A stretch of 62,903 nucleotides of DNA, counting the filler, from Basidiobolus ranarum (taxonomy: Eukaryota): assembly GCA_040143965.1 (NCBI GenBank). It is 56 parts of 56 records of this genome, joined end to end, with 100 filler letters (N's around TTAATTAATTAA, not from the genome) between each part and the next. Parts side by side here need not be neighbours in the genome. Positions count along the whole stretch, not along the records: positions 36,094 to 37,117 come from JASJQH010006780.1; 55 more parts are not named here. The stretch is one strand, 5' to 3'. Position 1 is the first letter of the stretch, and every line of letters starts with the position of its first letter. This document shows, one piece after another, positions 20,452-48,120 of this stretch. The position numbers and the translations under genes were made by a program. The notes below the pieces were generated by a model, which worked only from the letters and a program-made list of their open reading frames with translations, made no database searches and had not been told where the DNA came from.

Positions 20452-20459
20452 GCATTGAA

Positions 20460-25870: not shown

Positions 25871-25970
25871 NNNNNNNNNNNNNNNNNNNNNNNNNNNNNN
25901 NNNNNNNNNNNNNNTTAATTAATTAANNNNNNNNNNNNNNNNNNNNNNNNNNNNNNNNNNNNNNNNNNNN

Positions 25971-26996
25971 CCTAAAATAATAATGCTACATATCTTGATC
26001 TATCTCAGCAAGAAGTCTGTCATGAAGCTTTCCTAGAAATACCTTCAGATTAATACACCAATACATTGGTCCAAATTATAGAGGTACTTACTCTGTGTCC
26101 ATGGATTGGGCTTTGTTGCTGTTTTTGTGCTTAAACAATGCAAAAACCCATGGGCATATTAAAAAGAGCCCTTTGTTGGAAGATTGATATATTCTGCAGT
26201 CTCCTTAACTCATTATATCACATCCATGACTGATTTTACTGATATATTGTTAATCAGATTAGCATATGTTAATACTGACAATTTCACATAGAGCATCATT
26301 TCACCTCAGGTGTGCTCCATTTGAACCCCCAGAATGAATAGCAAGGGCCTATAGTTTCTGAACCTTGTGAAAAATGTAGCAGGCAATGTATTGAATACCA
26401 ACATAGATTCAGTCTATCTTATTTAACCCTAACGAAAATAAAATCAATTTGATCCGGATTGGATCTACAATCCAAAATAGCAAAAGTGTCAGAGAACCAT
26501 CACAATATTGTTGGCTTGCATTCTGCCAGGGATTTTGATGTTGTGATGGCGGTTTTTGATGGCAACTTAATGGTATTCATACATATTAAAATACTGATCC
26601 TCAAATTTGGCATGTGTTATTTGATATCCAGCAATTTTTGCAAAAATATAATTTTTGAATGGCAAATTACTGGGTTTATAGCTGTAGGAATTCAAACTTT
26701 TATGCATGCCTTTATTTAAAAGCAACATAGTTCAATATAAAGGTACTTACTCTGTGTCTGTGGATTGGGCTTTGTTGCTGTTATTGTGCTCAAACAATGT
26801 GAAAACTCATGAGCTCATTGAAAAGAGCCTTTGTTGGCAGGTTGATATACTCTGGAGTCTCTTTAACCCATTGCATTACTTCCATCACTGCTTTTGCTGA
26901 TATATTGTTAATCAGATTAGCATAGGGTAATACTGACAATTTCACACGGAGCATCATTTCACCACAGGTGCACTCCATTGGGAACTCCCAGAATGT
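25971..26996 (-). mobile_element. Two CACTA transposase C-terminal fragments separated by a right terminus at 26427
   Basis: FWEFPMECTCGEMMLRVKLSVLPYANL-type sequence occurs twice. CCCTAACGAAAATAAAATC at 26427. Confidence 0.85.
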
Positions 26997-27096
26997 NNNN
27001 NNNNNNNNNNNNNNNNNNNNNNNNNNNNNNNNNNNNNNNNTTAATTAATTAANNNNNNNNNNNNNNNNNNNNNNNNNNNNNNNNNNNNNNNNNNNN

Positions 27097-27813
27097 AAAT
27101 CTAGTGGTGAGTTGTATAGATTCCTCTTGTGAAATAGAAACCTCATCAGGAGTCTCTTTGATTTGGAGTGATCTAGTACATCTCTGCAATGGTCTGGACT
27201 GCTCCAATTTGCCTTTGGGAATATCTTCTGATTCAATAAATTGTCCTGCTTTTCTCTTTACACCTCTATTGATTACTCTTGCCATAGTGTCCTGAAAAGT
27301 TGTTTTGAACTCTGCAACCTCCATCAACAGTTGCTGTAAAGTCTCATTGAGTAGTGGTTGATATCTATTTAGAACATCTTTTGTCTCTAAAGTTGAGGCA
27401 TCAATGGTTGCTTCCAGTCCATACAAGCAAAAACATTATTGGAATTGTGTCTTTGCGGACTCAAAATTGAAATTCCTATTTCTTAATTCACACTCTCTAT
27501 CCTCATGAATATTATTGTATACTTTCTTGCAGACTTCTGAAGGCATGAAGATATAGTATTCTCTCCAAAGTGGAGCCAAAAGTTGCTTCCACTTTTGTCT
27601 AATGCCCCCTTCCCCAGCTTTTGTCAAGTTTATCATTAGCTCCCATATATGCAAGCAAGAATTCATTGTTTATACCTGGGAATCTGTAAAATCATTAGGT
27701 GCATGCTACTTTGTACCACCCACACCTTCATTTGACTGCACATGCAAAATTTTGGAAGTGATGGTTTCCTGTACCACAGTAGATTATGAATCAGGAAGAA
27801 TCTGTTTTGACAT
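27097..27813 (-). pseudogene. Decayed ORF with a possible Myb/SANT-like (trihelix) domain
   Basis: One frame with internal stops: K*HAPNDFTDSQV*...QKWKQLLAPLW...SEVCKKVYNNI. CpG-depleted. Confidence 0.45.
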
Positions 27814-28880
27814 GAAATGTAGCTACCATATATATCTATGATGTTAGAATTTATTGGTTTCGATTGGAATTAGGGATCTTTTTATATTAGTGGTTAAAAT
27901 GTCAAAGTTAATTTCCTATAGTTTGAACAAGCATACTGCATTCTGCTTTGAGCTGTTTTGATATGTACACTAAATAAATTGATATGCATCATACTATGAT
28001 TAACTTTGCTGATGCAGTTTATTATACAATTTCTATGCAATTACCTATAATTGAAATAAATAGGATAATAAATGCAAACAGAAATTCTATTATACAGAAT
28101 GTAGGGAATTTTACCATGATANNNNNNNNNNNNNNNNNNNNNNNNNNNNNNNNNNNNNNNNNNNNTTAATTAATTAANNNNNNNNNNNNNNNNNNNNNNN
28201 NNNNNNNNNNNNNNNNNNNNNCAAAAAACACATGTTTTGAATGGCAGAACTGAGCCCCAAATAATCAGAGTATGGATAAGCCAAGTAATGAGATGCTGTT
28301 TAACTAGTTTCAACAAGAGAAACAAAGTTCTTCAATCATTAAGATCAGCACTGTTACTATCCCAGCAAGTGTGCAAGTACAAAATTTGAAATCAACTAAG
28401 CCGCATCTTTCCTAAGAAGCCAGAATGACTCAGATTGGACATTGATTTGGCAAGTTAGAATCCAACGCAAAGCAAGCAATATCTCTGACCAAAGATTAAA
28501 GAAAGCAGCTAACTAACAGCTGTTTAGATTGGCAACATCTTGTGATCTAGCAAATGAGAAGAGCTGAGTATTTGCACATGCATGAATTTGAAACTCTGTT
28601 TATGTAAACCCAATTTCTAAGCAAAGGCTGATGTAGTTGCAATTGATCACTGATTCTTACTCCTAAGCTATCTCAGACTAGTGAACATAATCTGTTTGAT
28701 AAAAAGTGATTAAGCTTTCATCTATATTTCTGATCCTCCTTTTGGGTTCCAGAGAACATCATCCCAAAACACTGGCCTTCCTTTAAAATCAAGATATTCA
28801 TCTAGTCTGAACAGAAAGGTAATAATGGCTCATATTGCAACTTCAGGATTGTTTTTGACATTGTCAAAGTATTGCAATAC

Positions 28881-29246
28881 TGATAAAAGTGCTTATGAAA
28901 TTTGGAAGTATTGTAGACAAGACTGGGATTTGTGAATGGGAAACTAACATTTTATTGAATTAAATATGTCCTATTAATAGTTTACTATGAAATAGGACTA
29001 TTAGATGTGCTTAGATTTTAACCAACATGCCTTTTAAGCATGGATGAATATTTAAGATGATTTGAAGTGTTGAAATTAGGTAAATAGCAACTCATTATTT
29101 AGTAGTTAGTTTATTCATATTCTGATTATTTAGCGCTCAATTCTGTTATTCAAAAACGTGTGTTTATTGCTCTAATTGATAGAAATATCAATTAGATCAC
29201 TTTTACCAATTTTCACTATTTTCTCAAAACTTCTCCAAATCATCTC
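28881..29246. repeat. Two nested Copia LTR-B fragments in opposite orientation
   Basis: TGATAAAAG at 28881; TGTTGAAATTAGGTAAATAGC at ~29068. Confidence 0.8.
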
Positions 29247-29346
29247 NNNNNNNNNNNNNNNNNNNNNNNNNNNNNNNNNNNNNNNNNNNNTTAATTAATT
29301 AANNNNNNNNNNNNNNNNNNNNNNNNNNNNNNNNNNNNNNNNNNNN

Positions 29347-30371
29347 CATCAACCCTTTGACTTTAGCACCAAAGAAGGATTCACAAGGAAATCTTATGCT
29401 AAAAAGATACTGTTTAGATCCAAGACCTCTAAACAAGCTACTACAGGATGATAGATTTCCTATCCCTAGGAACAACAACATCTTTCCTTTGCTCTCAGGA
29501 GCACAAGTATTTTCTAAATTGAATTTAAAAGATGTTTATCATCAATTTCAGATTCATCTAGACCACCAACACAAGACTGCTTTCACATGGAGAAACATGC
29601 AATGGATGTTTCAAGGAGCACCCTGTAGACTCAAGACATTGACTAACAAGTTTTAAAGAGTTATGACTATCATTCTCAATGATACTAGCTATGCCTTAGT
29701 GTTTGTTGATGATGTTATCATCTTCTCAACTGATTGAGTTGATCATACAACCCATGTTACTAATATTATCAACCATCTTACTTCTGGTGGACTTATCCTG
29801 AATGCTGAAAAAAGCAGCCTTGCTTGCCTTCAAATCAATCTAATTGGTTTTATTGTTATTCCTACAGGCTACCAATCAGATCCTTACAAGTTAGTCAACA
29901 TTAAGGATTGGCCTAAGCCCACCACCGCTAAATTACTTCAAAACTATCTTGGAGTCTTCAACTATTTTAAGGAACATATGCCACTTTTGTCTACTCTAAG
30001 TGCACCACTTGATTTCTTACAACATAATCCAAGTCTACTCTCAGTTAGGACTAAAGTACATGACCAAGCCTTTGATTCACTATGCACAATGCTTCCCCAA
30101 GCTCCTACTCTATCTTATCCTGACTTTTCCAAGCCTTTATTTGTTGCTACCAATGCATATAATGTTGGGTGAGAGAACGTTCTTTGCCAGGACAAAGACC
30201 AAAATCCACCGGATTGGAATTCTTTCAAGCCAGATCTTTACAGCCTACTGAATGCAATTATTCTGCTACCAAGAAGGAATTAATAGCCATTGTGTTTGCC
30301 TTCAAGAAATTTCACCAGTACCTCTGGGGAAATCATTTTACTCTTTACACTGACCACTGAGCACTTGTCTA
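29347..30371 (+). mobile_element. Ty3/Gypsy reverse transcriptase and RNase H fragment
   Basis: RYCLDPRPLN, HKTAFT, FVDDVII, NYSATKKELIAIV and FTLYTDH. Confidence 0.93.
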
Positions 30372-30471
30372 NNNNNNNNNNNNNNNNNNNNNNNNNNNNN
30401 NNNNNNNNNNNNNNNTTAATTAATTAANNNNNNNNNNNNNNNNNNNNNNNNNNNNNNNNNNNNNNNNNNNN

Positions 30472-31496
30472 GATGTAGTCTCTGGAGATGAAAAGGAACC
30501 TTCTGACCCTTCTTTATTGGAAGCTTACAAGAAAAGAGATAAGAAGGCCTTTAATGTCATTTGTCAAAGTTTGAAGGATTCATAACTTGTGAATATTTAT
30601 TAAGCAAAGACTTCCCATCAAGCTTGACTATATTGGAAGAGTGTTATGAAGCAAAGAGTCTTGCCAATAGACTCTTTCTCAGACAAAAATTCTTCAATAC
30701 AAAGATGGAATAGTCTGAAAGCATGGCTACTCATATTGCAAATGTGAGATCTTTGGTTAAACAACTGGAAAATATTGGTGCAACTTTACAGGAAGAAGAT
30801 GTTTTTATAACTCTTCTGAGTAGTCTACCAGAACAGTATTCAAACTTGGTCACAGCTTTGGAAGCAAGATCTGACAAGTTGTCTTTGGAGTTTGCAGTGG
30901 CAAGGCTAATGGATCAACACCTCAGAAGTAAGAATTTGGAAAAAAAATCTCAGGAAGTGGCTCTTTTTGGAGCTGGAAAACATAGCTTTGGCAAGTACAA
31001 AGGTTACAGAGAAGGAAACCAGGTTTATGTTATGGTTGTAGTAAACCTGGACACCAGTTAAAAGATTGCAAATCCAGAAATTACAATAACAATGAGAAGT
31101 CATAACAATCAAATCAGGTTTTAACTAAAGAGATGGTTTTAATCATTTCTGCCCTATTGGTGACCTGTAAACAAGACTGTAGGTTGTGGTATATTGATCT
31201 GGAGCCTCTCAACATTTCTCTAATTGAAAATACTGGTTTAAGACACTCAAAACTGACATAAACAAGAAGGTTTATATGGGTGATGAGCAGCCACTAGAAG
31301 CTCTGAGAGTGGGAGAAATTGAAGTGGATCTTGGGGGCATCTCTGGGGACATGTATTTGACACTGAAAAATGTGCTATATGTGCCTGGGAAAGCAAAATA
31401 TTTGTTATCAGTGAGTGAAGCTACATCTGAGGGATAGAGCATTCATTTTGATCAAAATGGCAGTACAATCAGGGACCAAAAAGGGAATTATGCAAC
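30472..31496 (+). mobile_element. Copia gag-protease fragment
   Basis: LLSSLPEQY, CYGCSKPGH knuckle, WYID.GASQH. Confidence 0.9.
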
Positions 31497-31596
31497 NNNN
31501 NNNNNNNNNNNNNNNNNNNNNNNNNNNNNNNNNNNNNNNNTTAATTAATTAANNNNNNNNNNNNNNNNNNNNNNNNNNNNNNNNNNNNNNNNNNNN

Positions 31597-32621
31597 CAAA
31601 GTTCAACCAAAACACCATCAAGACCATCTGCTTCTAAAACAGCTACTTTGCCCACTATTCAACAACCCTCCGTCAAAAATTTGGATAGATTTATTACAAT
31701 AAGGGAATTGCAGTCAGAACACCATAATGATTTGTATGCAATCATGAGTAAAAACTATGAAGTTGCTATACAGGCCATGACAAGCAATAACACCACAATA
31801 TTGCAATTAATGCAGCGTATGGAAGCAACTAGTCAACAGTTAGGGAGTAACTCAACAATGATACAAGACCTTTAGAATGCTGTTCTTGAGCTACAACAAC
31901 ATGCTGCTCCCTCCATCCATTCTCATATGGGATTTCAGTCATTCCCATGCCATATGAACAACAACATGGCAATCTAGAAAGAGCTGAATATATGTTGGAA
32001 GAAATCTCATGGGAAAACTAGCAAACCAAAAGATTCTAAATGACAGCGCTGCAATCACTTGCTCTGATGATGAGTGATTTAACATTTTGGAAACTGTGCG
32101 GGATCTTGCCCAAAATCACCTGGATTTGATACAATTGTGGAAAAACCAAAAACCAGGCATTACTGTGAAGGTTCTTGACTTATTTCATGTGGCTTAACCT
32201 GGGTTTTTGCAAGCAAATGCCAATTATGCTAGTATAGGCATATTCATGAAACATCTCAAAAATGTACACAATTATCAACTTTGAAAAGAAAGAAATGAAG
32301 CTAAAGAAGTACTGAAGGAGCAGGAAGTTAGTAAACCCAAGGCAAAAGCAATGGAGCCAGTGAGGTTAGGCTCTACTGGCCCAGTTACCAAATTCTTCAC
32401 ACCATTACAAAGATCTGCAATTCCAGAGTCAGATATACTGGCAAAAAAGCTTAATTTCACCATGGAACCAGGTTCACCAGTTGGAAGAGTGCTAAGTTTG
32501 GAAGTTTATCCAACACATGGCACCTCTCAACAAGCCAAAACACCAGCAAATAAAACTCACAGCTCTCCAACCTCAACTGGTACTTTTCAAAGTGTTGAAA
32601 TTAGTCCCACAGGTAAAGGCA
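31597..32621 (+). mobile_element. CACTA ORF2 fragment
   Basis: Homologous to the other ORF2 copies. Confidence 0.85.
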
Positions 32622-34969
32622 NNNNNNNNNNNNNNNNNNNNNNNNNNNNNNNNNNNNNNNNNNNNTTAATTAATTAANNNNNNNNNNNNNNNNNNNNNNN
32701 NNNNNNNNNNNNNNNNNNNNNTTTCCAGCTGGTTGCGTCATCAATCAACCAATCTAGCTTCCTTGAGATATACACCAGGTCTACTTGAAAGTTATCTGAC
32801 ACTCACACATTAAATACTGATATGGATTCGAGCACTATCACAAACCATACATAAATGCAAACCATAGAATAAGCGATATGACGGTCTTGGTAGGCACAGG
32901 TTTCCCTAGCCCCATTTAGTCACAAAAATCTACTAATTAGGCAAATCGATTCAGCTGTTTGATAGTAGTGAGTACGTTGATTGTATTCTGAATTATGATA
33001 AATTACCTAATAGGGTAATCGCATTTTATTCTTAATCATGATCTACTACTTAATAAGGCAATCATATTCCAATCACATTTCATTAAAAGCTTGTTTACAA
33101 GCGGAAGTAAACTCACCTATTTTATCGATAGGAGCTAGCTAAATGAATATAGGCCACGGATAATAAATGGATATGGGCCACGGCCAAGGCGCAAGATGCA
33201 TTAGTTCTAGACCGTAATTAGGAAACAAGGAATGATAAACCAAGTTCATCAGAACAAGTCAGTCATTGTTTGATCACTTTTTGCCTCTTTTGGAAAATAT
33301 ACGAAATTTGTGTTCACCCGATGGATGCTTCGATTTACAGAAGGACAAAGCGGCTGCGGGTGCATTTTTCCCGACTTAGTATGTTTAGCCGATACAAAAG
33401 AATTTTTGCTTCACAAACATGGTTTCCGTGGCTAAGTGCGTGGGAGGGAGGGTGCTAGAATATTACATTAGCAAACAACTGCTAGTATTGCTAAATTGAG
33501 TGAGGTGATAGAATATTCCATTTTCAGGAATAACTCCGCATACTCCTTGGAGTCATTAGGATCTTGTTGCTACTTCAATTGCATCGCTAGGAGAAAGCTG
33601 AATTATTCTACTTGTTCTCTACAACCGCTAAGACTTGACCAGTGTATCCATAGTGCCAGAAGGTGGTTGCTTCGCTAGAAGGAAGCAGAAAGATGACAAA
33701 TACTTGGCTAGAAAGAGGTGAACAGATAACAAAGATTTGGCCAGTNNNNNNNNNNNNNNNNNNNNNNNNNNNNNNNNNNNNNNNNNNNNTTAATTAATTA
33801 ANNNNNNNNNNNNNNNNNNNNNNNNNNNNNNNNNNNNNNNNNNNNTTATGCAAAGTTGATCTAAGCATTTATTCAAGTACTCATGTATGTTAATAAAATT
33901 GGAATAGAGCTTAACTATCTAGCTCAAGTAGATACAAACCAAGTGTCATCATCATTGAGTTAATCAATAACCCCTGGTATATTTCATCCAACATGACACT
34001 TAAGTTTATGCGATTATGTGTAGAGCTTGGGGCCTCTTGAAAAAAATCGAAGAATCAAGTAGACGCAGTAATATTCAATTCCATATAAAGCAGAAATATT
34101 AATTCAATTCATGATATTGTGTAGTGACAATATTATTCCGGTTGCGACGAGTATTCAAAAGTATACATATGGCTATACCAAATGAAACCTAAAGAGTGGG
34201 AAATAAAGTTGTCACTTCTACCTGAGCTGAAAATTAATTTAACTTCAATGTCAATTACAAGTGAGGTAAGTACCGAAGTTAAGATGGTGAGATATGAAAT
34301 GATAAATTGAACTCTTCAGTTGATTACATTTCCCACTTGAGTCGTTGATAGTTCAAAGATAGACCATACGAAACACTGAGATTTTAGCATCTACTGACAA
34401 TCTTTCAGCCAACGGTTTAATTTGGTTTATCTAATGTTTATCACTCTTTCTAGTAGTTAAGGCGGGAAATGTATAAAATGTGCATCCCCGTAGTGTTCAA
34501 CGTTCATGTGGAATCCAGAATTTATAAAGCGAGTAAATCTCTCGATCAATCCAAGTTCTGAAAGTAAGAGTTCTTCCTCTCTTGTTGGGGATTCTACAGT
34601 AGTAAATTCGCAGATAAAATCAAGTCGCAAAGTATATTATGGAGATAGGTAATGCGCTGGTGCTTACTTCCGTTGTTTGGCAAAGCACTAAGTTTTTTTT
34701 AAATAGATACATTCCTCGAAGGGATTTCAATTTAGTTCATAGGTATGAATTGCTGAAAACAAAGCCGGAATCTAGCACTGAAGTTGTTGAATCTCCTGGG
34801 TGCTTGCAGTTTCGTTCCATGATCTTTTTCTTGCAGGAAACTAATATTACAACATGCATTTAACTTCAANNNNNNNNNNNNNNNNNNNNNNNNNNNNNNN
34901 NNNNNNNNNNNNNTTAATTAATTAANNNNNNNNNNNNNNNNNNNNNNNNNNNNNNNNNNNNNNNNNNNN

Positions 34970-35993
34970 TGAATGTCAAGTTGAATGTTCTTCTTCTAAA
35001 GCCACTTTCTGCATACTTGCACTGAGTTTTTCCCTTCATACTTTTGAAAATACTCCCCAAGCACTTTGAGTATTCTTGTTCATACTTGTAATGTGACACA
35101 ACTAAGGGTGCTTTGTGATGTTTGTGTGGATTTTTGCTTGCCTTTAATTTTGAGGCTAATTTCAACACTTTGAAAAGTACCAGTCAAGGTTGTAAAGCCA
35201 TCAGTTTTATTTGCTGGTGTTTTGACTTGTTGAGGGGTGCCAGGTCCTGGATAAATTTCAGAATTTAGCAGTAATGGAGCTGATTGTTATAATTTAAAGA
35301 AACAACCTACCATGGCACTTTCTACAACAGAAGTGGAGTACATGGTTGCCAGTGAAGCAACAAAAGAATCAATACAGTTACTAAAGCTCTCTACAGGTTT
35401 AGGTTATTCTTAAAGTTCACCCACTACCCAATTTCAAAATCATCAAAGTTGTATCAAATTAGATAAAAATCCCATATTTCATGATAGAAGCAAGCATATA
35501 GATATTAGATATCAATTCATTAGAGAGACTGTAGAGGATAAGCTTATCAACTTATTATTCTACACAAGACATGATTGCTGATATACTAACCCAACATTAG
35601 CTTGACAGAAATTTGGAGCTTCCTTTGGATTTGTAAATATGACCATATAGCTGGGTGAGAGTGTCAAAATTAGCATTGCCTAGGCATCTATGTAGTCATA
35701 TATAACTTTAACTTATTTATCCTATATTTTGCTAACCTAATACCTATTACTTGCAATTGGAATTTACTTTGAATATTTCTGGCTACATAGAAGTTCTTGT
35801 TAGAGGATCTTGACATAATGAGAGTATACTGTGTGTATTAGAAGCAACATATGATAGTGAATGTTAATTACTTTATTCTTAGGAGCATATGGTGACTTAT
35901 TTGGTAGAAAGGTAAATTAATTGTTTCAGAAATTCAGGATTTGGCTTAATAAGATATAGTAGAGAAGTGGGGGTAATAAGACATACTTGTTAT
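34970..35993. mobile_element. Mosaic: CACTA ORF2 (-) to ~35270, Copia RNase H (+), polypurine tract, LTR-A-like and LTR-D fragments
   Basis: KKQPTMALSTTEVEY, RSKHIDIRYQFIR; LTR start TGTCAAAATTAGC at ~35662. Confidence 0.8.
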
Positions 35994-36093
35994 NNNNNNN
36001 NNNNNNNNNNNNNNNNNNNNNNNNNNNNNNNNNNNNNTTAATTAATTAANNNNNNNNNNNNNNNNNNNNNNNNNNNNNNNNNNNNNNNNNNNN

Positions 36094-36738
36094 ATGGTGA
36101 CATTCATATGTATGGTGTGGGATTGATTGAAATCCCATATGAGAATGGACAGAGGAAGCAGCATGTTGCTGTAGCTTGAGTACAGAATTCTGAAGGTCTT
36201 GTATCATTGTTGAGTGAATCTCTAACAGTTGACTAGTTACATCCAAACGCTGCATTAATTGCAATATTGCAGCATTATTGCTTGTCATGGCCTGTATAGC
36301 AACTTCATAGTTTTTACTTATGATTGTATACAAATCATTACGGTGTTCTGCCTGCAATTCCCTTATTGTAATAATTCTATCCAAATTTTCTATGGAGGGT
36401 AGTTCAATAGTGGGCAATGTAGCCAATTTGGAAGTTGATGGCCTTGACGGTGTTTTGTTTGAGTTTTGCTCAACTATTGATTTACTACATAGTTGGAGGA
36501 TTATAATCTCTTCACTTGCACTATTGCTGGAAAGGAACACATCTGGTAAATTGATTAATGCTTCATCATTACTTGAGTTGGTTTCCGGCATGTTAATGTC
36601 TTCCAAAGTGGATAGTGGATTGCTAGACTGTTCATCAATTAAGTCCACTGCTTTTGCTGGTTTTTTTTGTTTTGTGCCAGCAGGCTTTGGCTTGGAAGCC
36701 AATTTTAACTTAGATTTTGAACGCTTTTTGAATGGCAT
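36094..36738 (-). mobile_element. CACTA ORF2 N-terminal 215 codons (open frame)
   Basis: Basic N-terminus, Ser/acidic linker, and heptad-like segment ILQLMQRL...IQDLQNSVLKLQQ. Confidence 0.85.
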
Positions 36739-36950
36739 TGAAATTTTCAGATGTTAAACTTGGTGTAATGAAATTGCTTAGAAACAGCTTATAATAAACC
36801 AAAATTGCCATCCATTACCGGAAATATCTTGTAAATCCCCTGATGACTCATCTGTGACACCATCTCAGAATCAGCTGATGATATTGATGGGCTATACCTA
36901 AAATACCACCCTTATGTGGGAGGTGTTCTTTATTCTACAATATCCTTCTC

Positions 36951-37117
36951 ATGCCACAACACAAACATTTAAAGAAGCCCTGCTATTATTGTCGCAAATT
37001 CTTGTGCCATGAAAGCCGGAGGCTTCATAGAAAAAATAATCACAAGCAGGGTCACTGAACAAAGCCACCAGCTGCACAAAGCCTGGTGTATAACAACAGT
37101 AATAAGTGCACGAAATT
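36951..37117 (+). mobile_element. CACTA transposase start
   Basis: MPQHKHLKKPCYYCRKFLCHESRRLHRKNNH (C-x2-C-x11-H-x4-H). Confidence 0.75.
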
Positions 37118-37217
37118 NNNNNNNNNNNNNNNNNNNNNNNNNNNNNNNNNNNNNNNNNNNNTTAATTAATTAANNNNNNNNNNNNNNNNNNNNNNNNNNN
37201 NNNNNNNNNNNNNNNNN

Positions 37218-38241
37218 AATCAGATTAGCATATGGTAATACTGACAATTTCACATGGTGCATCATTTCACTACAGGTGTGCTCCATTGGGAACTCCCAGA
37301 AATATAGCAAAGGCCTATAATCTCTAAGCATTGTGAAAGATGCAGCAGGGAATGTGTTGAATACCAGCATAGATTCAGTCTATCTTCTTTAAACCTGTAA
37401 TGAAGTTTTTCATATCCAATTAAAAAATCTTCTCACAGTTGCTGTATCTGCCTGAGATCTGCCAATGTGAGTTGATGCCATAAGAATATATTAACAATAT
37501 CCACAAACAACTCCCAATGTTGCCTATACTTATCAGCCAGAAATCTTTTCAAAGTTCCACTTGAATATATACAAATCCAATACTTCCAGTCTTTGCATTT
37601 GAATAAACACCTTGATGAGCAGATATTGATGGGAGTCCTGGTAAGACATTATGGTATCTTGACGTTTTCAATCATTTTGCCAATTGATTCAATCTTTGAT
37701 CCTATCTTGAATGGCTCATTCATATTGAATTTTCCACTATATAGCTGAGTAAGTAGTGTTGGAATGCTGTTGAATAGTAAGTGCATAGTGCCTCACAGGA
37801 AGCTCTGGCTCCTGCTGATCCCCATTAGCAATATAATTTTAAGCTTACTGCTAATACCAATTTTGATGTTAGACTGACTATTGGTGAATTGATATCAGTG
37901 ATCATATTAAAATTTGACCAGGCTCTTGACAGTAAAACCATGAAGTTTAGTGTTGTAATTCAATAGTAGTAAGGTGTATGTCTGATAGAGTAAACCCCAT
38001 TGATTTGACAAAATTTACAGCAAGATAGTGCATTGTTCCTGCAAAAACCTCCAAGTTTACTGATGGCAGGAGTGTCACCAATGCATACAATGATATTAGC
38101 TTTAATAAAATATTCACCCATCTGAACCCTATTAGATAACCATTCAAATTCTGCAATCAAAGGCTCCAAGCAGCTATCTATAAGCACTGGTGATTTAGGT
38201 CCAGATATGATGGATAGTATCAAAATATTATGACTCTTATA
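37218..38241 (-). mobile_element. CACTA/EnSpm (Transposase_21/tnp2-type) transposase catalytic core, decayed
   Basis: IISGPKSP..ID..LEPLIAE, IGDTPAISK.GG, CCKFC, MHLLFN, FKCKDW..W, H.LLH and FWEFPME. Confidence 0.9.
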
Positions 38242-38341
38242 NNNNNNNNNNNNNNNNNNNNNNNNNNNNNNNNNNNNNNNNNNNNTTAATTAATTAANNN
38301 NNNNNNNNNNNNNNNNNNNNNNNNNNNNNNNNNNNNNNNNN

Positions 38342-38870
38342 ATAGAAGATTAGGCCACATTGGGGAACAAAAACTGACCCAAAAGATCTGAAATCAGCTT
38401 GTTTCAGGCTTGAAAATTGCAAATATCACTAAATTGGATCCGTCTGAAGGTTGCATATATGGAAAGCATCACATGCAGCTATATTCAAGCTCTGGAAAGA
38501 TCAATTCCACTCAGATTTTTGCCCTGGTTTATTCTGACCTAGGTGGGCCCACAAAAAATGTCTCACTGGGTGGTAAAAGGTACTCTATGACCTTTATTGA
38601 TTACAAAACAAGATATACTTGGGCATTCTTTCTCAAAGCAAAATCTGAAGCCTTAGCTACATTCAAGCACTACAATGCAATGGTAGAGAAAGAATCAGCA
38701 CAAAAATAAGGGTACTAAGGGGTGATAATGGTGGAGAATACTGCTCTAAAGACTTTGCTAGTTTTTGCTCTAAACAAGGAATTAAGCAACTAACTACTGT
38801 ACCTTATACTCCACAGCAAAATAGAGTTGCAGAACATGCTAATATGACAATAGTGGAGATGACAAGATCA
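38342..38870 (+). mobile_element. Copia integrase fragment
   Basis: VYSDLGGP, TFIDYKTR, RGDNGGEY and PQQN.VAE. Confidence 0.9.
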
Positions 38871-39088
38871 TGTTTAATATTTCGTCTAACTCTAAATTTG
38901 TATTATGCACATTTCGAAACTTTTATATTTTTTTATATATTTTTTTATATACTTTTTTGTATATTTTAATTTTTATATACACAAAACTGTCAGTTAAAAA
39001 TATTAAAGATCTTTTTATTCAAACATATATTTTTTGTTTAGTTTAACCATTTTATATAAAAACTTTTTTATCATATATGCATCTTTGT

Positions 39089-39364
39089 CTATTCTAGATA
39101 CACTTGCTCGTAGGCATATTCATCTGGGTTTTTAGTACCAATAACAATTGTTATTATTGCCATTACTGTGCTCAACAATGGTACATATGTATGCGTTTTT
39201 AAAGCCAATATAATCCCTGTATAAGTTTGCGATAAATCTCCTATCGCATGTCCAAGTATTTGAAAATATCCTTTCTCAACTCTCAGATTTAACCTGTAAA
39301 ACATTGCTGATATAATTGCTGCAGTAAAATGCAAGACAACAATTGTATACATATATCCAATTAC
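39089..39364 (-). CDS. Hydrophobic, membrane-protein-like ORF 3' end in very AT-rich DNA
   Basis: Open from the contig edge to TAG, with two or three hydrophobic segments. Family not recognised. Confidence 0.4.
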   Translation of the reverse strand, partial: VIGYMYTIVVLHFTAAIISAMFYRLNLRVEKGYFQILGHAIGDLSQTYTGIILALKTHTYVPLLSTVMAIITIVIGTKNPDEYAYEQVYLE

Positions 39365-39464
39365 NNNNNNNNNNNNNNNNNNNNNNNNNNNNNNNNNNNN
39401 NNNNNNNNTTAATTAATTAANNNNNNNNNNNNNNNNNNNNNNNNNNNNNNNNNNNNNNNNNNNN

Positions 39465-40487
39465 CCAAGCCCACCATTGTATTAACATTGCTGAATCAAC
39501 ATTCTCCCAGCTATCTGGTGGATACCCTGCAATATTGTGCCACTCTGTATTAGGTTCTTCCCAGATATCTGCATGGTCAACACCAGACTAAATGTCAAGT
39601 TGAATGTGCTTCTTTTGAAGCCACTTTCTGCATACTTGCACTGCATTTTTCCATTCAAACTTTTGAAAATACTCCTCAAGCACTATGACTATTTTTGTAT
39701 GTCCTTGTAGCATAATACTACTGAGGGTGCTTAGTGGTGTGTCTGTGGCTTTTTGCTTGCCTTTACCTTTAGGGCTAACTTCAACATTGTGAAAAGTACC
39801 AGTAGAGGTTGGAGAGCTGTGAGTTTTATTTGCTGATGTTTTGGCTTGTTGAGAGATGCCAGGTGTTGGATAAACTTCCAAATTTAGCACTCTTCCAAAT
39901 GTTGTACCCGGTTCCATGGTTAAATTAAGCTTTTTTGTTGGTATATCTGACTCTGGAAATGCAGATTTTTGCAATGGTGTGAAGAATTTGGTTAGTGGGA
40001 CAGCAGAGCCTAAGCTTACTGCCTCCTTAGCTTTTCCCTTGAGTTTACTAACTTCCTGCTCCTTCAGTACCTCTTTAGCTGCTTTTCTTTCTTTTCCAAG
40101 TCAATAATTGCATACATTTTTGAGATGATTCATGAATAGGCCTATACTAGCCCAATTGCCATTTGCTTGCAAAAGCCCAGGATAAGACACATGAAATAAG
40201 TCAAGAACCTTCAGAGTAATGCCCGTTTTTTGGTTTTTCCTTGAATGGCTCCAATCCAGGTGATTTTGGGCAAGATTCCACTCAGTTTCCAAAATGTTAA
40301 ACCACTCATTATCAGAGCAAGTGATGGCAGCTCTGACATTAAGAGTCTTTTGATTTGCTGGTTTTCCTATAAGATTTCTACTTTCATGTGCCCAAGCAAT
40401 GTTGGGTTGTTGTGTAGGCCTAATGGTCCAACACATATTCTGCTCTGCTAGATTGGCATAGTGATGTTTATATGTATGGTGTGGCAT
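39465..40487 (-). mobile_element. CACTA ORF2 central to C-terminal fragment
   Basis: EWFNILET...NWASIGLFMNHLKN...CRKWLQKKHIQLDI. Confidence 0.85.
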
Positions 40488-40859
40488 NNNNNNNNNNNNN
40501 NNNNNNNNNNNNNNNNNNNNNNNNNNNNNNNTTAATTAATTAANNNNNNNNNNNNNNNNNNNNNNNNNNNNNNNNNNNNNNNNNNNNTAATTCTCACATA
40601 ATTCACATGTATATAAAATATATGTTCCGATTTGCAGCTAAGTGATATTTGACTAAATAATGTTGACTAACTAATATGTGATATATGAAATAGTTAGGTG
40701 TATAGGGATAACATATATGATAAAGACAATAAACTTCAACAAAAACATGCTTGCAGATATACTAACAAAGCCACTCAAAACTTCAAGCTTTGAGAAGTTA
40801 AGAGCAGGAATATGCATTAGTGAATATATGCACAATGCTGAATAAGAATTATAGGAAGG

Positions 40860-41176
40860 TGTTGGATAATTAATCTTTATTCAATATCATAGTTAACTTT
40901 AGTTATAATACATAAATCAGAAACAGAAAACAACATATCTATAGCCCCCATATTCAAAATAGGAATATCCCTATATCTATATAACAAGTATGTCTTATTA
41001 CCCCCACTTATCTATTATATTTTATTACACAAACTCCTGAATATCTCAGACAATTGATTTACTTTTCTACGATATGAGTCTCCATATACTCTTAAGAATA
41101 AAGCAACTAAAACACACAATCATAAGTTGCTTCTAATACTCAAAGTCTACCCCCATTATGTCAAGATTCTCCAACA
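40860..41176 (+). repeat. Complete 3' Copia LTR, family D (~317 bp)
   Basis: TGTTGGA...TCCAACA, preceded by LADILTKPL RNase H end and purine tract ATAGGAAGG. Confidence 0.85.
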
Positions 41177-41552
41177 ATGTTTTGAGTATTACAATCAATA
41201 AAGTTTACTTCTTTGTCTTGAACTTTCTCTTGTATAAAATGATGTTTTATGTCAATATATTTCATCCTTGAGTGATGCTCAGGATTTTTGGTGATCTGAA
41301 TACAACCAATATTATCTTGATATATTGGGGTAGGATTAACTTGCTTGTATCCTAGTTCCTTGAGAAGAATCCTTAGCCATATAGCTTCTTGAACAGCTAT
41401 AAAGCTTGCCATATATTCTGCTTCTGTGGTTGATAATGTGACAGTTTGTTGTTTCTTGCTAATCCAGCTTATTGGCCCACCTGCTAGCTTGAACACATAT
41501 CCAGTTCTGGATTTACAGTCTTCTGTATGGTCAGCCCAGTCTGCATCAGGTA
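41177..41552 (-). mobile_element. Copia RNase H fragment
   Basis: [29 protein letters not shown] and [10 protein letters not shown]. Confidence 0.95.
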
Positions 41553-41710
41553 TAAGAAAGGAAAATTTGGGCATTCGTGATTTTATTATTTTTGTAACTC
41601 GTAATTCTAGNNNNNNNNNNNNNNNNNNNNNNNNNNNNNNNNNNNNNNNNNNNNTTAATTAATTAANNNNNNNNNNNNNNNNNNNNNNNNNNNNNNNNNN
41701 NNNNNNNNNN

Positions 41711-42622
41711 AGCCACATGTAGCATATTTTACAGTGTCTAACAGATGTCCCCAGAGATGCCCCCAAGATCCACTTCAATTTCTCTCACTCCCAGAGCTGC
41801 AAGTGGCTGGTCATCTCCCATATAAACCTTCTTACCTATGTCAGTTTTAATTTTCTTAAACCAGTTTTTTTTGATTAGAGAAATGTTGAAAGGCTCCAGA
41901 ATCAATATACAGCAACCTACAATGTTGGTCAGAGGTCACTGATAGGGTGGAAATGAATAAAACTTCCTCTTTGGTTGAAACCTGATTTGTTTGTTCTGAC
42001 TTCTCATTATTACTGCAATTTCTTGATTTGCAATCTTTTATCTGGTATTCTGGTTTGTTACAACCATAGCATAAGCCTGGTTTCCTTCTTTTGCAACCTT
42101 TGTTCTTGCCAAAGCCAGGTTTTCCAGCTCCAAAAAGAGCCAATTCCCCAGATTCTTCTTCCAAACTCTTACTTCTGAGGTGTTGATCATTTAGCCTTGC
42201 CACCACAAATTCTAGAGATAACTTGTCAGATCTTGCTTCCAAAGCTGTGACCAAGTTTAAATACTGTTCTAGTAGACTACTTAGAAGAGTATTAACAACA
42301 TCTTCTTCCTGTAAGGTTGCACCAATATTTTCCAGTCATTTTGCAAAATATTGCATATTTGCAATATGAGTAACCATGCTTTCAGACTTTTTCATCTCTA
42401 TATTGAAGAATTTTTGTCTGAGAAAGCGTCTATTAGCAAGACCCTTTGCTTCATAACACTCTTCCTATACAGTCCAAGCTTGATTGGAAGTCTTTGCATA
42501 TTGAATATTCACGAGTTGTGAATCTTTCAAACTTTGACAAATGGCATTAAAGGCCTTCTTGTCTCTTTTCATGTTAGCTTCCAGTGAAGAAAGGGTCAGA
42601 AGGTTCCTTTTGATCTCCAGAG
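41711..42622 (-). mobile_element. Copia gag-protease fragment
   Basis: CYGCNKP knuckle, YIDSGAFQH. Confidence 0.9.
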
Positions 42623-42833
42623 GTATGATGAGCGAATCATCACCTGAATTTTACTCATCTTGATGTTTTAGTAATAGACTGGGTGATACAGAGCTATCGC
42701 ACCATCCTTGTTTGTTCTCTATGAATTAGCTACNNNNNNNNNNNNNNNNNNNNNNNNNNNNNNNNNNNNNNNNNNNNTTAATTAATTAANNNNNNNNNNN
42801 NNNNNNNNNNNNNNNNNNNNNNNNNNNNNNNNN

Positions 42834-43856
42834 TATTTGCAAATCCATATCTTGTCCAAAACACTTCCAAATCCCCTAAACACTTTTATCGGGTTATGGA
42901 CCCCAAGCTAGTTGTTAAAGGAATGTCTACCAGTACTATTACCAGTGTCTTAGCATCCACAGAGAAGTTTGATAGTGAAGACTTTTGCCTTTGTAAGTTC
43001 AAGATGCAAATGGTGCTAGAAGACAAGGACCTTTGAGGATCTGTTACAGGAGAAGCAATAGAGCCAAAAAGACCACCAGAAGCTATCCTTGCCTTTCTCA
43101 AGAAGCAGGGGAAAGCACTCTCTACACTTTGTCTACATGTCAGAGATTCTCAATGGAGGCACATATAATCAGCTAAAAACATCAAAATTGCTTGGGAAAC
43201 ACTTGAGAGACTAAATGAGACTAAAAGTCTGGCTAATAGGCTATATCTTGTGTGAAAATTATTCTCAATGCAGATGAATACTGATGATTCTATGCACAAG
43301 CATAAATATCGGATAAAAACTATGGCTGATCAGCTCTCATCCATTGGAGCACCTCTAAACAAAGATAACTTAGTCATGACACTGCTTGGGAGCCTGCCAG
43401 ACAAGTTTGCAAACCTCATAATTGCCCTGGAATCAACATCAGTGCTATCAACTACAGAACATGTTGGTGCTAGGTTTTTGAATGAAAAATAAAGGAGATC
43501 TATTTCTCAGCAAAATATTGCCAAACAGGCATTTTTTGGAGCTGTAAAACCTCCCACAGGCTTCAATAATGGTGCTCCTGTTAGGAAATTAAACATCTGC
43601 AAGTATAGCTAGAAACCAGGCCATTCAATCAATGATTGCAGAAAAAGGATTTTTGCTGAAATGCTAAAATCAGAACAAGCAAATCAAGTAAGCACTGATA
43701 GAGATCATCTAATTGTGTCTGCCCTATCAGTAACCACTAAAGAAGACTCAATAACATGGTACATTGATTCAGGAGCTTCCCAGCATATGACAAACAGGAA
43801 AGATTGGTTTTCCAGCTTAAAACCAATCCAAACACAAAAACTCTACTTAGTTGACA
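42834..43856 (+). mobile_element. Copia family B LTR end, primer site, gag and protease
   Basis: GGTTATGGACCCC at 42892; MSTSTITS..EKFD, LLGSLPDKF and WYIDSGASQHMT. Confidence 0.92.
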
Positions 43857-43956
43857 NNNNNNNNNNNNNNNNNNNNNNNNNNNNNNNNNNNNNNNNNNNN
43901 TTAATTAATTAANNNNNNNNNNNNNNNNNNNNNNNNNNNNNNNNNNNNNNNNNNNN

Positions 43957-44978
43957 AGGAACACATCTGGTAAATTGATTAATGCTTCATCATCACTTGA
44001 GTTAGTTTCCAGCAGGTTAATGCCTTCCAGAGTGGACAGTGGATTACTAGACTGCTCATCAATTAAGTCCTCTGTTCTTGCTAGTATTGTTGCTTTTGTG
44101 CCAGCAGGCTTTGGCTTGGAAGCCAATTTGGATTTATATTTTGGACACTTTTGAATGGCATTGATATTTTCAGATGGTAAACTTGGTGTAATGAAGTTGC
44201 TTAGAAACAGCTTATAATAAATCAAAATTGCCATCCATTACCGGAAATATTTTGTAAATCCCCTGATGACTCACCTGTGACACTATCTCAGAATCAGTTG
44301 ATGATTTTGATGGGCTATATGTAAAATACCTTCCTTACATGGAAGGTGTTCTTTTTCCACAGTATCCTTCTCATGCCACAACACAAACAATTAAAGAAGC
44401 CCTGCTATTATTGTCTCAATTTCTTGTGCTATGAAAGCCAGAGGTTTCATAGAAAATGTAATCACAAGCACAGTCACTGTACAAAGCCATCAGCTGCACA
44501 GAGCCTGGTGTATAACAACAGTAATAAGTGCACTGAATCAACTTTAGTTTTCCCATTGCATCCACCAACTGTACATTGCCTCAAAGTTTTTGTAACATTG
44601 CCCAAAGTCAAGATACCATGGAGTTACCACAGTTATATGACCAGAATGATGTAGTTAGATATGCAACTTTGGTCAAACCAGTAAGTCCAGACAACTTTGA
44701 GGACTTGCTGCTAGATGTTGACCTTGGTTATTCCAGTACTGATGGTAGTATATCAGAAGATGAAGAAGACAATGGTTTTGTTACAGACTCTTTGTTATTG
44801 GCAAACATTAGTCCACTCATAACACTTACTGTAAAGGAAGCATCTTTGATTATTGAGGAGTGGAGAGTTCAATCCAATCTTAGCAACCAGGTGTTTATTG
44901 GTTTTCTTACACTTTTACCACAGTTGACTGGCAACTGTTGCTTGCCACAGACCTGGTACAAGTGGAAATCACTTGTCA
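43957..44978. mobile_element. CACTA centre: ORF2 start (44161, -) and transposase N-terminus (44373, +)
   Basis: Divergent ATGs 211 bp apart. MPQHKQLKKPCYYC...EWRVQSNLSNQVF..LL...LPQTW. Confidence 0.85.
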
Positions 44979-45078
44979 NNNNNNNNNNNNNNNNNNNNNN
45001 NNNNNNNNNNNNNNNNNNNNNNTTAATTAATTAANNNNNNNNNNNNNNNNNNNNNNNNNNNNNNNNNNNNNNNNNNNN

Positions 45079-46100
45079 CACTAAACCCAATTAGATCCTT
45101 ATTCTCATAAGAATAAGTGTATCTCAATCACTGCTCAATTTTCCCCTTCCAATATCTGAAAATCTGCTTAACTGCTGTGCAAAGCTCAGATCCTGGGTGT
45201 TGCACATGTTGGCTGACTACTCCCACTTCAAAAGAGATATCCGGATGTGTCCAAGCCATACTATAGATCAAACTGCCCACAAGAGATTGATAAGGGAAAT
45301 CAGGGCTTTCAAATGACATATTTTGAGCCATATTTGGCCAATTTTCATCATATTTGATAGGATTTTTGACTAGTTTTGCACCTGAATCCATGGGAGTTGT
45401 TACCAGATTACAATTCTCCATCCTGTAACATCTGACAATGTCTGAAATGTATTTGGATTGACTCAGAGTGATAAATTCACTCAATATATTTGTATGGATC
45501 TGCATGCCAAAAAAATACATCTAAATGAGTCATCTTGAATTGGATTGATAGATCTCTTTTGGTGTTCCAGAGCACTTCATCATTATTGGTAGCTGTAATC
45601 AGATATACTATATATATAACACAAATATCACCTTACTGTCCTTATCTGTCTTAAAGTAGATCACAATACTTGCCATACTATTTTGGAAATCAAGTGATTC
45701 CAAGTATGTGTCTATCTTAGTGTACCAGGCCCTAGGCAATTTTTTAAGTCCATAAAGTAGTATTTGTAGCTTACACACACCCTCAGGGTGCTCAGAATCC
45801 ACAAAGCCATCTGGTTGATCCATGAATATATCCTCTTCCAAGTCCCCATTCAAAAAAGCAGTTTTAGCATTGATTTGTTAGATTTTTATGCTCTATTTTG
45901 CTGTTACTGCTAGTATAGTTCTGAAGAATTAAACTTTGCTACAGGTGCAAGTGTTTCAATGTAGTCCACTCCTTCAATTTGAGAGTATCCTTTAGCCACA
46001 AGTCTGGCTTTATATCTTTCTAATGATCCTTCAGCTTGGTGGTTAACTTTAAATACCCATTTTCATCCAATTGATTTGTGATCATCATATAACTTGATAA
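45079..46100 (-). mobile_element. Copia reverse transcriptase fragment
   Basis: [20 protein letters not shown] and YGLKK.PRAW. Confidence 0.93.
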
Positions 46101-46200
46101 NNNNNNNNNNNNNNNNNNNNNNNNNNNNNNNNNNNNNNNNNNNNTTAATTAATTAANNNNNNNNNNNNNNNNNNNNNNNNNNNNNNNNNNNNNNNNNNNN

Positions 46201-47222
46201 ACCTCCAGAATAGTGCTGATTGTATTTTCTGGATCATGAACTGTGATTTGAGGTGAAAAATTTGCTTTTTCATCAAAAAGCACATCTCTGCTCTTGATTA
46301 ACTTCTAATTTTTTGGTATCAGACAGTCTGTAGGCCTTTGATCCATCACAATAACCAAGAAATATGCATTTTTTGCTTTGGGGTTCCAATTTTGAGCATT
46401 TTTGAGCAGGAATTAGGCAATATGCCATGCAACCAAAGACCCTGAGATTATCCACTCTTGGTTTTGATCCATATAGAGCTTCAAATGGAGTAGAATCATG
46501 TAGCAGTCTTGTTGGGCATCAGCTTTTGATATAGACTGAATGGAGACAGATTCAGCCCAATATTAGTAATCTATCTTTTGATCATGTAACATTGATCTTG
46601 CCATCTCCGCTATGGTCCTATTAGCATGTTCTGTTACTCCATTTGCTGTGGAGTATAAGGTACAGCAGTTTGTTGCTGACTTCCATGTTTAGAGCAAAAA
46701 CTAGTAAGTCTTTAGAGCAGTATTCAACACCATTATAACTCCTTTGTATTCTTATTTTTTCTGCTGATTCTTTCTCTACCATTGCTTTGTAGTGCTTGGA
46801 TGTAGCAAAGGCTTCAGATTTTGATTTGAGAAAGAATACCTAAGTATATCTTGTTTTGTCTTCAATAAAGGTCATAAAGTACCTTTTCCCCCTCAATAAG
46901 AAGTTTTTCATAGGCCCACATAGGTCAGAATGAATCAGGGAGATATTCTGAGTGGATTTGGTCTCTCCAGAGCTTGAAAATGGCTGTTGCTGATGTTTTC
47001 TATATAAGAAGCCTTCACACAGATCCAATTTAGTGATAATTCCTATTTCCAAGCCTGAAACAAGCTAATTTTGGATCATTTGGGTCAGTTTTTGTTCCTC
47101 AATATAGCCTATTATTCTATGCCACATTTGACAACTAATATACCAGCTTTGGCCAAGTTTGCATGCTCAGAATGCATTTTGTTGATTTCTAGCTTGTATA
47201 AGTTTTGAGTTTTGATCCCAGT
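46201..47222 (-). mobile_element. Copia integrase fragment
   Basis: IHSDLCGP, LRVFGC and KCIFLGY...KAYR. Confidence 0.93.
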
Positions 47223-47322
47223 NNNNNNNNNNNNNNNNNNNNNNNNNNNNNNNNNNNNNNNNNNNNTTAATTAATTAANNNNNNNNNNNNNNNNNNNNNN
47301 NNNNNNNNNNNNNNNNNNNNNN

Positions 47323-47924
47323 AGAAGATGTCTTGAAAGTGGGGGAGCTGGTAAAGAAATCTTGTTTTGCAGACACGTTGGAGGAAATAGCTATGAATGG
47401 ACCTGATGCATTCTATAGGGAAAAAATTGGCAATTTCATTGTGAGTATGATTCAAAATGCTGGTGAGATCATTGCTGTGGATGATCTTAGCTAGTACCAA
47501 GCAGTATCGAAGCCTCCACCTGTAGGCTACTATCAAGGTTACAAAGTGATTGCTGCACCGCCACCTGCAAGTAGCTCAGTTGGTCTTTCAGTGCTGAATA
47601 CTCTAGAAGGAATCGAGTGATGGGATCCTGATTTCATCACTACAACAGCCCACCAACACAACAGCCAAGATTTCTTAGATGTTATCAAAGGATCAAGGAG
47701 CTCTAAGACGGCATAACATCTCAGACACAAGAACTTTTCCAGTTGAATATTACCAAGCAAGTTACCGGCATAAAGATACTCCAGGCACTACTCATTTGTC
47801 AACCATGGATAAAGAAGGCGGAATATCAATCTTGAATTTGGAACTACATCATGAAATTGGTATCGTTTTCAGTAATGACATGGATGATTTTTCCTCACCG
47901 AGATTGGTGAATGCGACTGGATAA
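47323..47924 (+). pseudogene. Gamma-glutamyltranspeptidase pseudogene
   Basis: GPDAFY, YQGYKVIAAPPPASS, catalytic-Thr motif GTTHLS and NDMDDFSSP. Frameshift, stop and internal deletions. Confidence 0.8.
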
Positions 47925-47946
47925 CGTTAAAAGCTGAAAGAATCAA

Positions 47947-48030
47947 GGATAGCATTACTAGGATAGCATCACTAGGTTAGCATTACTAGGTTAGTATTAC
48001 AAGGTTAGCATTACTAGGTTAGCATTATTC
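47947..48030 (+). repeat. Minisatellite, 6 x 14 bp (GGWTAGCATTACTA)
   Basis: Six adjacent near-identical units read directly. Confidence 0.92.
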
Positions 48031-48120
48031 GTGATGAAGTGCCTTTTAACTGTGTGATAATTGGATTTAAAATACAAGTTGAGTCGAAGAAGAAACTGAA
48101 GTAGCGGTGAAAATAGACTA

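Follow-up and report, generated by a model that had tools for sequence, protein, structure and literature searches.

The stretch of DNA analysed here, a window of 62,903 nucleotides from the fungus Basidiobolus ranarum (assembly GCA_040143965.1), comprises 56 contigs of 1018–1032 bp, with a G+C content of 31–40%, arranged in order of length with N/TTAATTAATTAA spacers between them. These contigs, numbered c1–c56 along the window, together with public protein collections, form the evidence base. An original prediction singled out c33 (36094–37117; JASJQH010006780.1) as part of an EnSpm/CACTA DNA transposon, in which a second gene, ORF2, lies head-to-head with the transposase gene. The termini of EnSpm/CACTA elements are inverted repeats that read CACTA/CAC, or CCC in animal and fungal members, with those of maize En/Spm reading CACTA, and insertion produces a target-site duplication of 3 bp (2–5 bp in the wider clade). 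On the minus strand of c33, ORF2 starts at 36738 and stays open for 215 codons up to the contig edge (36094–36738), encoding a basic N-terminus, then a linker rich in acidic residues and Ser, and finally the first part of a coiled coil, with relatives in the B. ranarum database proteins P0005 and P0001. A 212-bp spacer (36739–36950) separates it from the transposase start on the plus strand (36951–37117), which encodes a C2H2-like CxxC...H....H motif, is stopped after 35 codons and, as a short piece, has no Pfam hit.

This divergent junction recurs in the window, and all four of the ATG pairs named in the original prediction are present. Reverse-strand ATGs at 36738, 44161 and 49099 face forward ATGs at 36951, 44373 and 49312 in c33, c40 and c44, respectively, and c14 carries this pair inverted (15209/15422). 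The spacer measures 212 bp in c33, c44 and c14 and 211 bp in c40 (equivalents at 15210–15421, 44162–44372 and 49100–49311), and contains small palindromes. The conserved spacing had been taken to come from four independent contigs; the pairs are real, but the contigs are copies of one repeat and not independent confirmations. Because they are 86–91% identical, the constant spacing reflects common descent, and is inherited rather than independently maintained. The closest copy of c33 is c44 (48445–49465, plus strand; ORF2 from 49099, transposase ATG at 49312), at 91.5% over 1011 bp, while in the inverted c14 junction (14698–15726, minus strand) the transposase reads leftwards from 15209 and ORF2 rightwards from 15422. 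A one-base difference in an A-run shifts the ORF2 ATG out of frame in c40 and c44; it is in frame in c33, c14 and P0005. A fifth copy of the spacer, in c23 (24845–25870, plus strand), has lost both ATGs and belongs to an internal-deletion derivative, in which the 3' part of ORF2 abuts the spacer and N-terminal transposase sequence with nothing in between. Because the four contigs and c23 all carry ORF2, spacer and transposase N-terminus as one continuous run, the three are read as one unit. An antisense frame of 145 codons also overlies the ORF2 N-terminal region (36320–36757, plus strand); it is open for 139 codons in both c44 and the consensus and for 107 in c14, and is probably a side effect of codon usage.

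The forward gene encodes, from its ATG, the CxxC...H....H motif, an acidic stretch, and then a conserved ...EEWRVQSNLSNQVF...LPQTWYKWK... segment. Its N-terminal region in c40 (44373–44978, plus strand) matches residues 2–145 of P0006, a 698-aa protein from an ENA assembly and the one protein recovered among 404 candidates when longer proteins were searched with a 147-residue c40 query (72% identity over 144 residues). Residues 1–145 of P0006 are covered by c40, c14 and c23. P0006 scores PF02992 (tnp2, Transposase_21) at 60.3 bits; at E values up to 1 it matches PF02992 and PF06869 only, and no Plavaka or Kyakuja-Dileera-Zisupton model. The tnp2 core lies in c49 (54049–55068, plus strand; degenerate, 67% identical to P0006 183–514, with first residues resembling P0006 175–183) and in c34 (37218–38241, minus strand; P0006 289–630). 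Alone, c34 reaches 28.7 bits for PF02992 against a cut-off of 28.6, whereas c49 stays below it at 22.4 bits. Identity to P0006 is 57–72% for the N-terminal contigs and 67–79% for the core contigs. The motif order GDTPA ... CCRFC/CCKFC ... HSLLH ... FWEFPME, within which we presume to assign the catalytic D and E, is found in P0006 and kept in c34 (as CCKFC). The same order, with C(2)C and H(3–4)H before the last catalytic E, characterises EnSpm-like transposases in the available part of PMC12730594. With tnp2 identified through P0006 and c34, and the junction seen in four contigs, the prediction of a CACTA/EnSpm element with a second, divergent gene is borne out.

The prediction had also pointed out that the join between the Cys/His N-terminal fragment and the tnp2 core is not spanned by any contig. 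This holds for the window, where some 30 codons are missing at contig edges (c40 ends at residue 145, c49 starts at ~175), but the join is closed indirectly, because P0006 holds both parts in one frame. The C-terminal end of the gene is represented in c24 (25971–26996, minus strand) by two pieces, P0006 568–698 and 602–688, which are 86% alike and lie around an unrelated repeat; this structure could be the product of nesting or an assembly chimera. In both c24 copies a GTAAGT follows ...PNPWTQ (26048–26060 region and near 26740), where P0006 reads through (SKYPY). The GTAAGT is likely to be an intron donor, so that the full transposase is probably longer than 698 aa and the P0006 model is probably a truncated, unspliced gene call. 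A metagenome scan with P0006 gave 588 pattern matches, one of which was confirmed (L001, 26% identity); comparison with it yielded no further transposase exons, and the 506 bp upstream hold no ORF2-like sequence. L001 itself (507–2951, from a soil metagenome) is a distant tnp2 transposase of the same general build, with a Cys-rich N-terminus and a long acidic stretch.

ORF2 can be followed beyond c33 in further copies. In c13 (13955–14597, minus strand) the coiled coil and a conserved block are encoded by 230 codons, the longest intact piece, and c36 (39465–40487, minus strand) supplies the helical block, a Lys/Ser/Pro-rich stretch and the Trp-rich C-terminal part, with two in-frame stops. Together, these give the order Lys-rich N-terminus, acidic/Ser-rich linker, coiled coil, conserved block, Lys/Ser/Pro-rich stretch and Trp-rich C-terminal part, among which are the basic N-terminus, coiled-coil-like segment and Trp-rich C-terminus named in the prediction. 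The conserved block contains GFQ..PH, NL..QN and QQP.IAWA.E.R.L.GKP.NQKTL, followed by the Trp-containing helical block, and the helical-block motif quoted in the prediction was located in both c13 and c36.

The majority consensus of ORF2 comprises 358 + 212 codons with one stop between them. In the six copies covering it, the stop column reads TGA, TGA, CAA, CAA, TAA and TCA, and the B. ranarum protein P0007 carries Q at this codon and then reads on; the stop appears to be a decayed CGA, altered by CpG loss on either strand. Restoration of 73 CpG sites, which had been proposed as a check, gives a single open frame of 571 codons, and raises identity to the two divergent relatives described below. 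The frame extends ~39 codons into the left arm before its stop, as seen in c13, c15 and c48, giving a predicted protein of about 585 residues, encoded without an intron and close to the roughly 600 aa first estimated.

An exhaustive HMMER search with the 230-residue c13 piece against 1.84 billion representatives returned five proteins. Three are B. ranarum ‘hypothetical proteins’ of 122–189 aa, and two are divergent and come from ENA assemblies: P0002 (299 aa, 37% identity) and P0004 (243 aa, 41%). Twenty-four invariant columns are common to P0002, P0004 and the window copies, and P0004 keeps the order of basic end, acidic linker, coiled coil and conserved block. After CpG restoration, identity rises from 39.6 to 42.1% for P0002 and from 41.6 to 45.5% for P0004. 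Because of these five relatives, the shared columns, the common part order and the gain in identity on CpG restoration, ORF2 is a real, long-lived, and very small protein family. Word-index searches gave three proteins among 7252 candidates with the ORF2 profile and two among 300 with the C-terminal part, and a metagenome scan with the profile produced 129 pattern matches, none of which was confirmed.

The prediction did not recognise the family of ORF2, and this stands, with no Pfam, Protein Data Bank (PDB) or fold match on checking. The plant En/Spm accessory (TnpA/TNP1) Pfam families gave no match at E values up to 1 in five window fragments, P0002 or P0004, which lowers the case that ORF2 is a TnpA, not that it works like one. 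A PDB profile search returned coiled-coil proteins only (best E 0.007), and an AlphaFold model of P0002, with a mean predicted local distance difference test (pLDDT) score of 58, is confident only for a helix at residues 7–74 (pLDDT ~90); this helix and the PDB matches together support a predicted coiled coil. A search of the ESM Atlas with P0002 reached a best feature score of 0.87, under the bar of 0.9, and its structure rows all had template modelling (TM) scores below 0.5. The structure and profile checks suggested in the prediction thus supported the coiled coil but gave no lead to function. DNA-binding helical domains appeared among the rows of a fold search, and were set aside as evidence, their scores being at background.

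Beyond the 3' end of ORF2 lies the left arm of the element. Arm and ORF2 belong to one unit, because they are continuous in c48 (52929–53948, minus strand; in c13 by 12 nt). A ~375-bp arm segment is present in c48, c15, c53 and, inverted, c13, and in c13 and c15 it runs into the first bases of c36; the start of c36 was considered as the left end and rejected, the sequence running on in c48, c13 and c15. The outer end of the segment is 5'-CCCYAACAGAAATTTGAGG, and a terminus 5'-CCCYAACAG is found at three junctions, each with an uninterrupted paralogue. The end 19-mer occurs three times in the window against 0.08 expected. The three flanks differ, and every one is found uninterrupted in another contig. 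In c15 (16479–16854, plus strand), the terminus 5'-CCCCAACAGAAATTTGAGG and ~375 bp of arm are inserted in a retroelement integrase gene, with an rve domain in the flank and the empty site in c9. In c53 (59012–59265, plus strand), the terminus CCCTAACAG and 250 bp of arm are inserted in a Copia-like pol, with empty sites in c10 and c21, and are cut off by another repeat. In c13 (13569–13954, minus strand; terminus at 13954) a second copy is nested, inverted, within the ORF2 of a first, the uninterrupted sequence being found in c36 and c5. As three different flanks each have an empty-site paralogue, there is good evidence that this is a true transposon end of the predicted CCC type. Some 250 bp of non-coding sequence lie between the terminus and the ORF2 stop, and the c15 arm holds five short AAAWTGTCAC-like repeats in both orientations, a weak signal to be treated as a lead only.

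From left to right, the element can be laid out as 5'-CCCYAACAG, an arm of ~250 bp, ORF2 in reverse, the 211–212 bp spacer and the transposase gene, itself ordered as a C2H2-like start, a variable acidic stretch and a tnp2 DDE core, with at least one likely intron. The assignment to EnSpm/CACTA rests on the transposase domain and motifs. When the contigs were aligned to a tiled backbone (c36 + c33 + c40 + c56), 17 of the 56 matched; a further three carry the tnp2 core and two the left arm alone, bringing the family to 22. Two of these, c26 and c39, share only a non-coding block, and the predicted figure of about 23 contigs is accordingly adjusted to 20–22.

The copies are in an advanced state of decay. 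Non-CpG divergence from the consensus is 5.6%, and substitutions in ORF2 confined to single copies number 113, 128 and 108 at codon positions 1, 2 and 3, with few shared ones (9, 5 and 10). As substitutions are spread evenly over codon positions, the copies appear to have drifted neutrally after insertion. With such neutral decay no selection is detectable, and the ratio of non-synonymous to synonymous substitution (dN/dS), which the prediction had put forward as a check, therefore cannot show function among these copies. Every copy that could be judged has stops or frameshifts, and in c5, all of which falls within ORF2, no frame stays open for 90 codons; all copies in the window seem to be pseudogenes and the family dead. 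Across the 56 contigs as a whole, the observed/expected ratio of CpG is 0.20, and TG and CA stand at 1.30. Within the family, C-to-T changes at the restored CpG sites are ~10x more frequent than in other contexts, a figure that is partly circular, as the restoration itself assigns CG. The CpG loss looks like the footprint of methylated-cytosine deamination, and points to methylation of repeats.

Taken together, these observations suggest that c33 is probably a piece of an autonomous EnSpm/CACTA family (tnp2, CCC type) that is abundant, of moderate age and no longer active, and in which ORF2 is an accessory gene, and ORF2 and the tnp2 transposase are, with considerable confidence, the two genes of one element. 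The arrangement of the parts, what the transposase is and the decayed state of the copies can be regarded as shown. Several observations weigh against this reading. The gene models are known here from DNA sequence alone, and the tnp2 pairing is seen for the window copies only, P0002 and P0004 being known as proteins alone. No window contig spans transposase residues ~150–175, where the link depends on P0006 from another assembly, and c56 exits the transposase frame at about residue 150 into a non-coding block rather than the core. The prediction had treated a right terminus as assembled, yet none was found in the window: a degenerate 15-mer for the right end gave four hits against 2.0 expected, 19 of 100 shuffles did as well, and the fourth hit, at 35600 in c32, was not convincing as an end. 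With contigs of ~1 kb, the two ends of one copy, and with them inverted-repeat pairing and a target-site duplication, fall outside the view of the data. The arm repeats are weak, as five of the 31 matches in the window lie in one 230-bp arm (16.9 being expected window-wide) and fewer occur in other copies. ORF2 matched no Pfam family above the cut-off in the five window fragments, P0002 or P0004, the Pfam scan detecting neither a DNA-binding nor any other domain. Both structure models are poor (pLDDT 58 for P0002 and, for the c36 conserved block, a mean of 51.8), and the best Z of 6.8 in a fold search with the c36 helical block is background for helical domains.

If ORF2 is indeed an accessory gene, the following scheme may be envisaged. 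The 212-bp spacer, here taken as a candidate bidirectional promoter, would drive both genes. The ORF2 product would be an element-encoded accessory protein that enters the nucleus via its basic N-terminus and self-associates through the coiled coil, while its Trp-containing helical block might act at the ends of the element, as does TnpA in maize En/Spm and as proposed for PrA of the animal element SmTRC1. That ORF2 is specifically an end-binding cofactor can be offered as a tentative suggestion, with the balance tilting away from it. A more elaborate proposal, that ORF2 represents a new accessory family restricted to Basidiobolus-like fungi, long maintained (three lineages at ~40% identity), expressed divergently off the shared 212-bp promoter, and gathering the CCC ends or shielding the element from methylation silencing, must be considered decidedly speculative and improbable.

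ORF2 could instead be a passenger, that is, a captured gene dispensable for transposition, such as an anti-silencing factor or a gene that once belonged to the host. Repeated capture of TET/JBP genes, thought to counter methylation silencing, is described for fungal DNA transposons, EnSpm among them, in the available part of PMC12730594; moreover, the CpG observed/expected of 0.20 in this host makes cytosine methylation of repeats plausible, and the lack of a recognisable DNA-binding domain in the Pfam scan would fit a passenger too. However, neither the Pfam scan nor the PDB profile search found a TET/JBP dioxygenase or other enzyme domain in ORF2, and a basic end, a coiled coil and a small helical domain are more structural or binding-like than enzyme-like. 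The five ORF2 relatives are all short proteins or fragments, and not one is named after a host gene. A passenger role is consequently regarded as unlikely.

It is highly improbable that the ORF2/Cys-His unit and the tnp2 core are two co-occurring repeat families, although no contig in the window joins the one to the other. The behaviour of c56 (61886–62903, plus strand) lends this idea some weight, as it carries transposase residues 56 to ~150 and then leaves the frame for a ~750-bp non-coding block common to c39, c2 and c26. This block, ~750–820 bp long (c56 61886–62903, c39 42834–43856, c2 1133–1600, c26 28222–29246), shows no coding frame, clear repeats or terminus motif in any of the four contigs; in c2 it adjoins the ORF2 3' part of another copy. 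The 3' arm of a deletion derivative, an inserted element and an intron have each been considered for it. Opposing the two-family idea, P0006 holds both parts in one open frame, its identity is alike for both sets of contigs (72% versus 67–79%), the gap between c40 and c49 amounts to only some 30 codons at contig edges, and copy divergence is alike as well, at 86% (c49/c34) versus 86–91% (ORF2 contigs). An origin of the layout in short-read assembly, through chimeric 1-kb contigs uniting unrelated repeats, is scarcely credible. Contigs do break at repeat borders, c24 resembles two copies fused across a third repeat, and a ~180-bp piece of the block in c26 is inverted relative to c2; but the ORF2–spacer–transposase junction occurs in four diverged contigs and c23, and independent gene calls in a B. 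ranarum assembly cover the same ORF2 stretches.

In describing the architecture as an unusual two-gene fungal one, the prediction was right as to the two genes, but a second gene in fungal EnSpm has already been described. Its premise, that CCC-ended members outside plants lack a second gene, is outdated in the light of the available parts of PMC12730594 and PMC1636069. EnSpm families carrying a TET/JBP gene are found in Pucciniomycetes and Pezizomycetes (Kojima 2025, PMC12730594), and, in the portion of that paper at hand, share with the present element a tnp2-type transposase with C(2)C and H(3–4)H, a second gene and a fungal host. They differ in that their second gene is a dioxygenase, whereas ORF2 matches no Pfam family; in their termini, given in that portion as CAC...GTG, whereas the left end here is CCC; and in their hosts, which are Dikarya, whereas B. 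ranarum is a zoopagomycete.

A further likeness is offered by SmTRC1, an animal, CCC-ended element with a Transposase_21 and a fast-evolving accessory protein, PrA, without detectable relatives and proposed to be TnpA-like, which has CACTA-like kin in animals and fungi (DeMarco et al. 2006, PMC1636069, in part). Both have the CCC start, the Transposase_21 and an additional orphan protein. The SmTRC1 proteins, as given in the available text of PMC1636069, arise from alternatively spliced transcripts of one unit, whereas ORF2 is a separate, intronless, opposite-strand gene with its own ATG 211–212 bp from that of the transposase. Maize En/Spm may work alike, with a transposase, a second protein and short repeats near the ends (weak here); according to the same text (PMC1636069), its TnpA and TnpD are transcribed in one direction from a common promoter, whereas ORF2 is divergent.

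In Basidiobolus itself, ‘huge expansions of CMC-EnSpm’ have been reported (Muszewska et al. 2017, PMC5751038). This survey concerns the same genus and superfamily; its available part counts transposase domains, without element structure, termini or a second gene. No description of ORF2 or of Basidiobolus EnSpm structure was found in the literature, the comparison leaving Repbase/Dfam consensuses and supplements aside. Non-plant two-gene CACTA elements, CCC termini and the Basidiobolus EnSpm expansion are thus already known, and what is new is the orphan second gene, its divergent placement and the explicit structure of a Basidiobolus element. The present analysis gives a first structural description of this massively expanded EnSpm, with a terminus, an arm, two divergent genes and deletion derivatives, and brings a further, unrelated accessory gene into the CACTA superfamily, the second proteins of which are poorly understood outside maize. 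It also explains short B. ranarum ‘hypothetical proteins’ as fragments of one transposon gene, and indicates that CpG-restored consensus building is needed for this genome. The reach of these findings is modest: no long-standing question is opened, the copies are dead, and the role of ORF2 is only guessed at.

The remainder of the window is of a mixed nature. Most other contigs are degenerate pieces of Copia- or Gypsy-type retroelements with gag, integrase, reverse transcriptase and RNase H-like frames (examples at 2265–3296, 10181–11210, 12440–13468, 15827–16478, 29347–30371 and 38342–39364); apart from the rve domain in c15, the family labels were assigned by eye. A repeat, here called S, has one sharp border beside five different flanks, in c24 (25971–26996), c53 (58529+737..59547), c17 (755–1027), c19 (1–113) and c20 (851–963), and is likely to be either the end of a distinct element or a long terminal repeat. 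Fragments of ordinary genes include a sugar transporter C-terminus (56963–57307, minus strand), an SNF2-related helicase (61220–61783, plus strand) and a LURP-one-related (LOR) domain (23721–24083, minus strand). Finally, a fully open frame of 343 codons at 3399–4427 (minus strand) carries a Proton_antipo_M domain (E 2e-59) and looks like a mitochondrial NADH dehydrogenase subunit, which we take to be nad5-like, so that organelle contigs appear to be mixed into the window.

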